In this document: one piece after another, positions 84-3,096 of the stretch
Position numbering within the stretch: position 1 is the stretch's first letter
Layout of the letters: every line of letters starts with the position of its first letter
NCBI RefSeq assembly: GCF_003334815.1
Contig: NZ_QOWO01000085.1
Direction: 5' to 3' (one strand)
Source of the DNA: Escherichia coli
GTDB taxonomy: Bacteria > Pseudomonadota > Gammaproteobacteria > Enterobacterales > Enterobacteriaceae
DNA length: 3,120 nucleotides
Translations under genes and position numbers: made by a program
The notes under the pieces: model-generated
Told to the model about the DNA's origin: nothing
The model's database searches: none
What the model saw: the letters and a program-made list of their open reading frames with translations, nothing else

Positions 84-767
84 ATGTCCCGTTTTGTCCT
101 CGGTAACTGCATCGATGTTATGGCCCGTATTCCTGATAACGCCATTGATTTCATCCTCACCGACCCGCCATATCTCGTCGGTTTCCGTGACCGTTCCGGG
201 CGCACCATCGCCGGCGATAAAACCGATGAGTGGCTGCAACCGGCCTGTAATGAAATGTTCCGCGTGCTGAAAAAAGACGCGTTAATGGTGAGCTTCTACG
301 GCTGGAACCGCGTCGATCGCTTTATGGCCGCCTGGAAAAATGCGGGATTCAGCGTTGTTGGTCACCTGGTCTTCACCAAAAACTACACATCGAAGGCCGC
401 ATATGTGGGCTATCGCCACGAATGCGCCTACATCCTGGCAAAAGGCCGTCCACGTCTGCCACAAAACCCGCTGCCGGACGTGCTGGGCTGGAAATATTCG
501 GGCAATCGCCATCACCCGACGGAAAAGCCCGTTACCAGCCTGCAACCGCTGATTGAGAACTTCACACACCCGAACGCAATTGTGCTGGACCCGTTTGCAG
601 GCAGCGGCTCAACCTGCGTCGCCGCCCTCCAGTCCGGACGCCGGTATATCGGTATCGAGCTGCTTGAGCAGTATCACCGTGCCGGGCAGCAACGCCTTGC
701 CGCCGTGCAACGGGCCATGCAGCAGGGGGCCGCGAATGATGACTGGTTTATGCCGGAGGCTGCGTAA
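84..767 (+). CDS. Orphan site-specific DNA N6-adenine methyltransferase, beta class (N6_N4_Mtase-type, YhdJ-like), 227 aa
   Basis: Strong SD and ATG start. Catalytic motif IV DPPY (nt 162-173) lies N-terminal to the SAM-binding motif I FAGSGST (nt 594-614), the circularly permuted order typical of beta-class amino-MTases. The C-terminal segment HPTEKP...VLDPFAGSGST...GRRYIGIE matches the conserved core of YhdJ-like and plasmid orphan adenine methylases as I recall them. No restriction endonuclease partner is present in the window. Confidence 0.9.
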   Translation: MSRFVLGNCIDVMARIPDNAIDFILTDPPYLVGFRDRSGRTIAGDKTDEWLQPACNEMFRVLKKDALMVSFYGWNRVDRFMAAWKNAGFSVVGHLVFTKNYTSKAAYVGYRHECAYILAKGRPRLPQNPLPDVLGWKYSGNRHHPTEKPVTSLQPLIENFTHPNAIVLDPFAGSGSTCVAALQSGRRYIGIELLEQYHRAGQQRLAAVQRAMQQGAANDDWFMPEAA

Positions 768-989
768 ATGAACTATGCAGGACACGAAAAACTGCGCGCC
801 GAAGTGGCGGAGGTGGCCAATGCCATGTGCGACCTGCGTACAACCATGAATGAGATGGAGCAGCGGTACAGCTTTAATGCCGACACCCTGCCGGAACGTC
901 TGGTGCGTCAGACGCTGTTTCGCGCAAACCGCCTCCTGATGGAGGCATATACCGAAATTCTGGAACTGGAAGCGTGCTTTAAAGATTGA
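768..989 (+). CDS. Hypothetical small protein, 73 aa, translationally coupled to the methyltransferase; function unknown
   Basis: Its ATG immediately follows the methylase TAA stop (TAAATG at 765-770), with GGAGG 9 nt upstream. The protein is predicted helical and mildly acidic, with no motif I recognise. It is followed 13 bp later by the next gene, which has its own SD. Confidence 0.65.
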   Translation: MNYAGHEKLRAEVAEVANAMCDLRTTMNEMEQRYSFNADTLPERLVRQTLFRANRLLMEAYTEILELEACFKD

Positions 990-2670: not shown

Positions 2671-3096
2671 ATGCAATATGCGAAACCTGTCACTCTGAAC
2701 GTTGAAGAGTGCGACCGTCTCTCCTTTCTACCGTATCTGTTTGGCAACGATTTTCTGTATGCCGAGGCGTATGTGTACGCGCTGGCGCAAAAAATGATGC
2801 CGGAATATCAGGGAGGCTTCTGGCATTTCATCCGCCTGCCGGATGGTGGCGGTTACATGATGCCGGATGGCGACCGTTTTCATCTGGTCAACGGTGAAAA
2901 CTGGTTTGACCGCACTGTGAGTGCTGATGCCGCAGGTATCATCCTGACTTCCCTTGTGATTAACCGCCAGTTGTGGCTGTACCACGACAGCGGGGATGCG
3001 GGACTGACACACCTTTACCGGATGCGCGATGCGCAGTTGTGGAGCCACATCGAATTTCACCCCGAATGCAACGCGATTTACGCGGCACTGGACTGA
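2671..3096 (+). CDS. klcA: Anti-restriction protein, KlcA/ArdB family, 141 aa
   Basis: Good SD and ATG. The protein carries the pattern I associate with KlcA/ArdB anti-restriction proteins: [11 protein letters not shown] ... EAYVYA ... [19 protein letters not shown] ... [10 protein letters not shown] ... [12 protein letters not shown] at the C-terminus. Its size (141 aa) also fits. This is recall of the family, not a database hit. Confidence 0.88.

Follow-up and report, generated by a model that had tools for sequence, protein, structure and literature searches.

The 3,120-nucleotide stretch of Escherichia coli DNA analysed here (contig NZ_QOWO01000085.1 of NCBI RefSeq assembly GCF_003334815.1; hereafter the window) encodes an orphan beta-class N6-adenine DNA methyltransferase that is followed immediately by a small gene of the YubE family. 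By orthology with M.EcoGIX of plasmid pESBL (E. coli O104:H4), the methyltransferase is probably (about 0.8) an allele of an already characterised family that places N6-methyladenine (m6A) on single-stranded DNA (ssDNA), is driven by a hairpin promoter and serves in restriction evasion. The YubE protein, at roughly even odds, is a separate early-establishment or anti-defence factor that shares the operon, and not a subunit that the methyltransferase needs. The two genes and the signals around them are:

Positions 72 to 77, + strand: Shine-Dalgarno sequence AAGGAG of the methyltransferase gene, 6 nt before its ATG, as read from the sequence.
Positions 84 to 767, + strand: M.EcoGIX-type orphan beta-class N6-adenine DNA methyltransferase, 227 amino acids (aa), identified by Pfam, NCBIfam and identity with the pESBL protein.
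Positions 755 to 759, + strand: Shine-Dalgarno sequence GGAGG of the second open reading frame (ORF2), 8 nt before its ATG and inside the C-terminal Pro-Glu-Ala-Ala codons of the methyltransferase.
Positions 765 to 770, + strand: TAA/ATG junction, where the methyltransferase stop codon (765-767) abuts the ORF2 start codon (768-770) with a 0-nt spacer.
Positions 768 to 989, + strand: ORF2, a YubE-family protein of 73 aa (Hp9 of pESBL; Pfam PF27407; phrog_4830).

The methyltransferase carries motif IV, DPPY (aa 27-30, nt 162-173), on the N-terminal side of motif I, DPFAGSGST (aa 169-177, nt 588-614, with FAGSG at aa 171-175), and is therefore of the beta class. It matches the Pfam family N6_N4_Mtase (PF01555) at E=3.4e-38 over model positions 1-219 of 221, and thus the original prediction of a beta-class adenine methyltransferase is upheld by both motif order and family. 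The NCBIfam model NF010253/PRK13699 ('DNA methyltransferase') scores 497.5 bits against a cut-off of 244. The predicted protein is basic (isoelectric point, pI, 9.1), and 215 of its 227 residues (95%) are identical to M.EcoGIX over the full length. M.EcoGIX, which corresponds to YfbB of R64 and to YfeA of F in PMC4288162 and belongs to PRK13699, likewise has 227 aa and the DPPY...FAGSG layout, and it occupies the same leading-region position with identical neighbours and gene spacing. The two differ by 12 substitutions, and the plasmids that best match the window are IncK2/Z or IncI-like, not pESBL itself.

When M.EcoGIX is deleted, recipients with EcoRI or EcoGIII receive the plasmid up to ~1000-fold less often (Yamaichi et al., PMC4288162), and the enzyme is published as shielding the incoming plasmid from restriction, which favours the protective role that had been proposed for the methyltransferase of the window. 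According to transposon-insertion sequencing (TnSeq), M.EcoGIX is dispensable in K-12 x K-12 matings and for maintenance, and Hp9 is non-essential like the methyltransferase, as judged in matings between non-restricting K-12 strains only (PMC4288162). The m6A produced by the cloned M.EcoGIX ORF is restricted to one strand and to the relaxed motif SAY, with ~40% of SAY sites modified; in vitro, ssDNA is methylated and duplex DNA is not (Fomenkov et al., PMC7736820). The same study examined catalytic DPPY mutants, found that inversion of oriT abolishes the protection, detected no SAY methylation on plasmid or host in the native donor strain, and reported that purified native M.EcoGIX lost activity (PMC7736820). 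The earlier statement that the target specificity of the methyltransferase is unknown is therefore outdated for the family, given the 95% identity with an enzyme that makes m6A at SAY on ssDNA. In a 2025 study, RNA-seq of fresh transconjugants placed the M.EcoGIX operon among six strongly induced operons, each driven by an ssDNA hairpin promoter, and the transcription start upstream of M.EcoGIX was mapped by rapid amplification of 5' cDNA ends (5' RACE) (PMC12672017). Orphan methyltransferases are among the most enriched functions of leading regions (Samuel et al., PMC11541004).

In three plasmids (a plasmid 99.5% identical to the window, pESBL and F), the annotation shows no restriction endonuclease gene over ~12 kb on the upstream side of the methyltransferase gene or 5 kb on the downstream side, which bears out the designation as an orphan and includes the upstream side, where a cognate endonuclease gene had been considered. 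Upstream of the methyltransferase gene, these plasmids carry a hypothetical ORF over the promoter hairpin, a DUF1281 gene, and a group II intron or imp/umu genes. The alternative that the enzyme serves a conventional Type II restriction-modification system as its modification component, with the endonuclease gene just outside the window, could appeal to the best PADLOC model, which is labelled 'Type II methyltransferase', although that is a family label only. It was rejected and is of negligible probability: no nuclease is annotated within the 12 kb in the closest plasmid, pESBL or F, the downstream genes encode YubE, DUF1380, YchA and KlcA proteins, and the enzyme of this family is silent in the donor and has a relaxed ssDNA specificity unfit for a cognate endonuclease (PMC7736820).

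That the methyltransferase acts as a resident epigenetic regulator, like Dam or CcrM, and imprints host or plasmid DNA with methylation during normal growth would fit its orphan status and the C-terminal motifs that it has in common with CcrM (83 bits). This score is far under the CcrM model cut-off of 830, neither plasmid nor host showed SAY methylation in the native strain (PMC7736820), the gene is expressed only while the ssDNA enters (PMC12672017), and according to TnSeq it is not essential for maintenance (PMC4288162). With silence in donors and a CcrM score below cut-off, such a regulator was rejected as very improbable.

ORF2 is a real gene under purifying selection, as had been expected of a 73-aa gene close behind the methyltransferase gene and in the same operon. 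It is 99% identical to Hp9 of pESBL, the protein called YubE in F, and matches phrog_4830, a family of unassigned function, over 73/73 positions (E = 1e-33). Close homologues carry a precomputed match to PF27407 ('YubE'), among them P0001, with 99% identity along the whole of ORF2. The Pfam-A scan of ORF2 itself did not return PF27407, and no significant match came from that scan or from those against NCBIfam and PADLOC. When 1.84 billion cluster representatives were searched with a YubE profile, only 149 matched at E <= 0.001, several of which are long coiled-coil proteins and are taken to be compositional. True members of the family have 72-77 aa and keep the pattern MNYxGxExLR...ERLAG...FxD down to ~25% identity; pairwise ratios of nonsynonymous to synonymous divergence (dN/dS) are 0.09-0.5 for YubE and 0.07-0.16 for the methyltransferase. 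A chance open frame, which the lack of a match in NCBIfam and in the copy of Pfam-A searched might suggest, is scarcely credible and was rejected on the grounds of this conservation of length and pattern and of purifying selection. The strong Shine-Dalgarno sequence, the existence of the families PF27407 and phrog_4830, a confidently predicted structure and the induction of the pESBL operon in transconjugants (PMC12672017) also speak against it.

The YubE protein is acidic (pI 4.9). Its AlphaFold2 model, with a mean per-residue confidence (pLDDT) of 88, is an antiparallel hairpin of two long helices (residues 3-33 and 41-72). Foldseek comparison of this model with the PDB gave generic helical hairpins only, designed coiled coils and the LSD1 tower among them, and no match reached E <= 0.001; a YubE profile against PDB sequences gave only designed or coiled-coil proteins, read as compositional. 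Searches of the literature by the gene names yubE and yfeB brought up nothing relevant to plasmids, and a scan of IMG/VR with a narrower YubE alignment yielded no confirmed locus.

Relatives of the methyltransferase were scanned in one genome per species, and the junction with YubE was counted in the 26 enterobacterial loci that hold the 3' end of the methyltransferase gene together with downstream sequence. An intact YubE ORF of 73-74 aa is present in 24/26; YubE is disrupted in one locus (L011) and lost in another (L023), the methyltransferase being intact in both. The junction is TAAATG in 6 loci, TAATG or TGATG (a 1-nt overlap) in 17 and ATGA (a 4-nt overlap) in one, so that the spacing is 0, -1 or -4 nt in 24/26. 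The sequence CCGGAGGC is kept in nearly all enterobacterial relatives, with a degenerate CCAGAGG in L019 and in L023, the locus that has lost YubE. An M.EcoGIX-type methyltransferase gene also precedes three distant YubE genes, with an ATGA overlap in L042 and with spacers of 25 nt in L044 and 13 nt in L045; the methyltransferases of the latter two lack the C-terminal extension (PEAA).

This arrangement is good evidence, at the level of sequence, that the methyltransferase and YubE are co-expressed, and the conserved junction is compatible with translational coupling without being proof of it. The tight spacing given in the original prediction stands, but the stop and start codons abut each other and do not overlap in the window. 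The 0-nt geometry is that expected of a coupled pair. Production of the two proteins in fixed ratio is only an inference. A GGAGG of its own precedes ORF2, and no mRNA structure is predicted to mask it: the mRNA fold at the junction is no more stable than that of shuffled sequence (z = +0.97), and this comparison gave no evidence of a structure sequestering the Shine-Dalgarno sequence.

Several lines of evidence indicate that YubE is separable from the methyltransferase. YubE genes without an upstream methyltransferase gene are found in the phage-plasmids N15 (gp50) and phiKO2 (Gp50) and in the metagenomic loci L043, L052 and L053. What precedes YubE in this second context is an ArdC gene or a divergent toxin-antitoxin pair of the RelE/HigB type; the gene after it invariably encodes a conserved gp51-like protein of 67-77 aa, a winged-helix protein by the phiKO2 annotation. 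Genes 50-51 of N15 correspond to L047 3501-3959 and the phiKO2 pair to L048 3501-3964, and the pairing recurs on two short contigs, L051 and L054. Another methyltransferase gene lies 110-500 nt past the gp51-like gene in 4/5 second-context loci with enough downstream sequence; it is of a larger beta-class type in N15, phiKO2 and L052, and of the D12 class in L053. In L053 (1252-4387) a gene for an ArdC-like protein, a pair of YubE paralogues, a gp51-like gene and the D12-class (Dam-like) methyltransferase gene stand in a row.

The two genes also differ in their histories. YubE has 33-34% identity, against 86-89% for the methyltransferase, in L010, L012 and L021. Between L004 and L022 the synonymous divergence (dS) of the adjacent YubE and methyltransferase genes is 0.135 vs 1.39, an up to ten-fold discordance, and between the window and pESBL it is 0.04 vs 0.31 for the two genes. 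Discordant dS between adjacent genes implies that recombination shuffles methyltransferase and YubE alleles; the comparisons of L004 with L022 and of the window with L002 point to breakpoints close to the junction or at it. YubE, DUF1380 and YchA all diverge far faster than the methyltransferase. Relatives of the methyltransferase in Achromobacter and Bordetella (62-67% identity; L030, L031, L032 and L035) are followed through an ATGA overlap by a conserved ORF of 83-85 aa (at 4645-4902), for which hhalign comparison with YubE found no homology (probability ~1%).

These observations bear on the possibility that YubE is a dedicated partner of the methyltransferase, which it might activate, connect to the replisome, SSB or PolI, or else inhibit or time, with coupling setting the ratio of the two. 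For such a partner speak the junction, which is tight in the 24 enterobacterial loci and also in L003, L004 and L042; the position of the YubE Shine-Dalgarno sequence inside the conserved PEAA extension, which is absent from the two methyltransferases with YubE 13-25 nt away; the occurrence of other YubE genes near other methyltransferases; and the behaviour of M.EcoGIX without YubE, the native enzyme losing activity on purification and only ~40% of SAY sites being modified (PMC7736820). The factor lost on purification was not YubE, however, because YubE was never in those constructs. Against a partner, the methyltransferase ORF alone methylates SAY in vivo (PMC7736820), YubE occurs without an upstream methyltransferase, the methyltransferase is intact where YubE is lost (L023) or disrupted (L011), the same YubE allele pairs with very different methyltransferase alleles, and the betaproteobacterial relatives hold an unrelated ORF in the same slot. 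AlphaFold2 modelling of a fused methyltransferase-linker-YubE chain brought no gain in confidence (predicted template-modelling score, pTM, 0.60; mean pLDDT 70.5, with five models at 47-70 and a disordered methyltransferase tail) and no sign of docking, although this is a weak test, made with a shallow alignment of 22 sequences and without predicted aligned error or coordinates. A dedicated partner is thus considered unlikely.

In particular, the cloned M.EcoGIX ORF alone suffices for the SAY pattern in vivo, so that in this setting neither activity nor specificity depends on YubE, and ORF2 is unlikely to be a specificity subunit. The suggestion that it could be a specificity partner is disfavoured by this activity, by the free-standing YubE genes of N15 and phiKO2, by the loss or disruption of YubE in 2/26 loci and by the up to ten-fold discordance in dS. 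A related proposal, judged improbable, is that YubE is a methylation modulator carried by mobile elements beside methyltransferases of several kinds (the M.EcoGIX type, the N15 gp52 type and the D12 Dam-like type). If this were true, YubE might tune the ssDNA methyltransferase, for example in its loading onto SSB-coated or replicating DNA, or might switch it off once the plasmid is double-stranded, avoiding the copy-number cost of M.EcoGIX alone.

Four points weigh against the preferred interpretation of a characterised methyltransferase accompanied by an independent YubE. The tight junction in 24/26 enterobacterial loci and in the distant L042 could reflect functional coupling of the two proteins, and the phage-plasmid YubE genes near other methyltransferases hint at a link to methylation. 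The function of the methyltransferase is read from M.EcoGIX, and several of the 12 substitutions in the window lie at residues 105-127, so that specificity may have shifted. Finally, the published M.EcoGIX deletion is a gentamicin-cassette replacement (PMC4288162), and a search of the main text of that paper turned up no passage on complementation, polarity or in-trans rescue; hence polar loss of YubE, DUF1380 and YchA could contribute to the deletion phenotype.

The coding-plausible long ORFs of the window (227, 73, 144, 258 and 141 aa in the ORF list) are all on the + strand. Downstream of YubE, the following features complete the first operon and open the next:

Positions 1003 to 1437, + strand: DUF1380 protein (Hp10 of pESBL), 144 aa, third gene of the operon (identical genes bear this RefSeq annotation; phrog_9024).
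Positions 1483 to 2259, + strand: YchA-like protein (Hp11 of pESBL), 258 aa, fourth and last gene of the operon (phrog_8919).
Positions 2264 to 2290, + strand: intrinsic-terminator-like hairpin GGCGGGGAAAATCCCCGCC followed by a T run, after the YchA gene.
Positions 2671 to 3096, + strand: KlcA/ArdB-type antirestriction protein, 141 aa, which opens the next early operon (RefSeq; phrog_10132, anti-restriction).

The hairpin after YchA probably marks the end of the methyltransferase operon. Between the DUF1380 stop codon and the YchA Shine-Dalgarno sequence there is also a perfect 9-bp GC-rich hairpin, ATCGCCGCC-TCCG-GGCGGCGAT (1442-1463), with no T run, which could be an mRNA stabiliser or a partial terminator inside the operon.

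The window is part of the leading region of a conjugative plasmid of the IncI/IncK/IncF type. The leading region is the first plasmid DNA to enter the recipient. By megablast, at least 5000 PLSDB plasmids match the window, each covering at least 80% of it at 90% identity or more; among the matches listed, 4081 plasmids are typed as conjugative, most come from Escherichia, Klebsiella, Salmonella and Shigella, and the best is an IncK2/Z plasmid, 99.5% identical. In this plasmid DUF1281 and imp/umu genes lie to one side of the window, with a further DUF1380 gene, ssb and a DUF905 gene to the other. Plasmid pESBL and plasmid F have the same genes, lengths and spacing as the window, and beyond it pESBL continues with ssb, a ParB-like gene, psiB, psiA and ardA, on to nikA/nikB (oriT). 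The genes for the methyltransferase, YubE, DUF1380, YchA, KlcA, ssb, psiB, psiA and ardA are, by synteny with pESBL and F, all oriented towards nikA/oriT or traM; because all genes point towards oriT, the transferred strand would be the template strand, which is the - strand of the window.

A group II intron encoding a reverse transcriptase/maturase is present upstream of DUF1281 in the closest plasmid (L001 8997-10721), and in L004 another follows the second DUF1380 gene. Six loci filed under Collinsella, Oscillibacter, Oscillospiraceae and Streptomyces morookaense (L005, L007, L014, L027, L028 and L040) carry the enterobacterial segment with a methyltransferase protein 88-100% identical; these are likely cases of assembly contamination or mis-binning.

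Two regions of the window correspond to single-strand promoters that have been assigned to classes in pESBL, class 3 upstream of M.EcoGIX and class 2 upstream of klcA and ardA (PMC12672017):

Positions 1 to 60, - strand: promoter-proximal arm of the large ssDNA hairpin upstream of the methyltransferase gene ('class 3' of pESBL), recognised by folding and by identity with pESBL; the remainder lies upstream of the window.
Positions 2260 to 2670, - strand: structured intergenic region, a 411-nt gap and putative 'class 2' ssDNA promoter driving klcA, recognised by folding and by its copy upstream of ardA.

For the first region, the transferred (-) strand of the 99.5%-identical plasmid (L001:11690-12090) folds to -111.4 kcal/mol (z = -6.45). 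The window holds ~60 nt of this hairpin promoter; its positions 1-77 are 98.7% identical to the sequence upstream of M.EcoGIX in pESBL, a near-identical region that has the mapped start site. RefSeq annotates a 312-nt 'hypothetical protein' ORF (L001 11697-12008) that spans the hairpin (11793-12060) and reaches positions 1-8 of the window, and which may not be a real gene. The second region, folded as DNA on the (-) strand, reaches -112.3 kcal/mol (z = -5.39, vs shuffled sequence). About 350 nt of it recur, 96% identical, upstream of ardA in pESBL, so that each PLSDB plasmid has two matching places, and this repeat agrees with the published class 2 pair. The region is named 'Frpo3' in an F preprint. 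No sigma-70 consensus is present in the whole duplex window, where the chance expectation is only 0.8.

Taken together, these features suggest the following course of events. On entry, the ssDNA hairpins upstream of the methyltransferase gene and klcA would act as promoters and give a transcriptional burst ahead of complementary-strand synthesis, with the - strand as template for all five genes. The first operon comprises the methyltransferase (as the M.EcoGIX orthologue), YubE, DUF1380 and YchA, and the methyltransferase would place m6A at SAY on the incoming single strand. After synthesis of the complement, the duplex would be hemimethylated at many sites and so partly shielded from the restriction enzymes of the recipient, and the promoter would be inactive once the DNA is double-stranded. 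The steps of entry and methylation are published for the 95%-identical protein and are extended to the window by orthology and synteny. YubE would be translated from the methyltransferase mRNA, either from its own Shine-Dalgarno sequence or by reinitiation, and as a small acidic helical hairpin it may bind a host or plasmid protein.

Several known systems resemble the two genes in part. M.BceJIII of Burkholderia cenocepacia (plasmid pBCA072) is the other characterised ssDNA SAY methyltransferase, also plasmid-borne and promiscuous in placing m6A (PMC7736820), and is likened to M.EcoGIX by its published activity. Betaproteobacterial relatives of the methyltransferase (60-67% identity) are followed by the unrelated 83-85-aa ORF, whereas that of the window is followed by YubE. 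Phage orphan methyltransferases, ArdA and KlcA/ArdB resemble the methyltransferase of the window as early products that blunt host restriction; KlcA is encoded in the window too, and ardA is preceded by a copy of the klcA ssDNA promoter. ArdA and KlcA bind and inhibit Type I enzymes, whereas the methyltransferase would modify DNA and counter Type II enzymes. ORF2 is a full-length member of the YubE/Hp9/N15 gp50 family, but its phage-plasmid relatives lie between a RelE/HigB-type pair and a gp51-like winged-helix gene, and ORF2 lies behind the methyltransferase. The controller (C) proteins of restriction-modification systems are, like YubE, small and encoded beside a methyltransferase gene; C proteins, however, bind DNA through a helix-turn-helix and are mostly encoded upstream of the genes that they control, and YubE is predicted to form a hairpin of two long helices, with no Pfam-A match and no helix-turn-helix in its AlphaFold2 model or Foldseek matches.

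Thus, what is found in the window is already known and is ordinary for enterobacterial plasmids: the role of the methyltransferase family was established between 2014 and 2025, and the window adds one more allele among thousands. This family helps resistance plasmids of the IncI and IncF types to cross restriction barriers and so bears on the spread of antibiotic resistance. The genes for YubE, DUF1380 and YchA, co-induced with the methyltransferase within minutes of entry, are among the commonest uncharacterised leading-region genes in Enterobacteriaceae.

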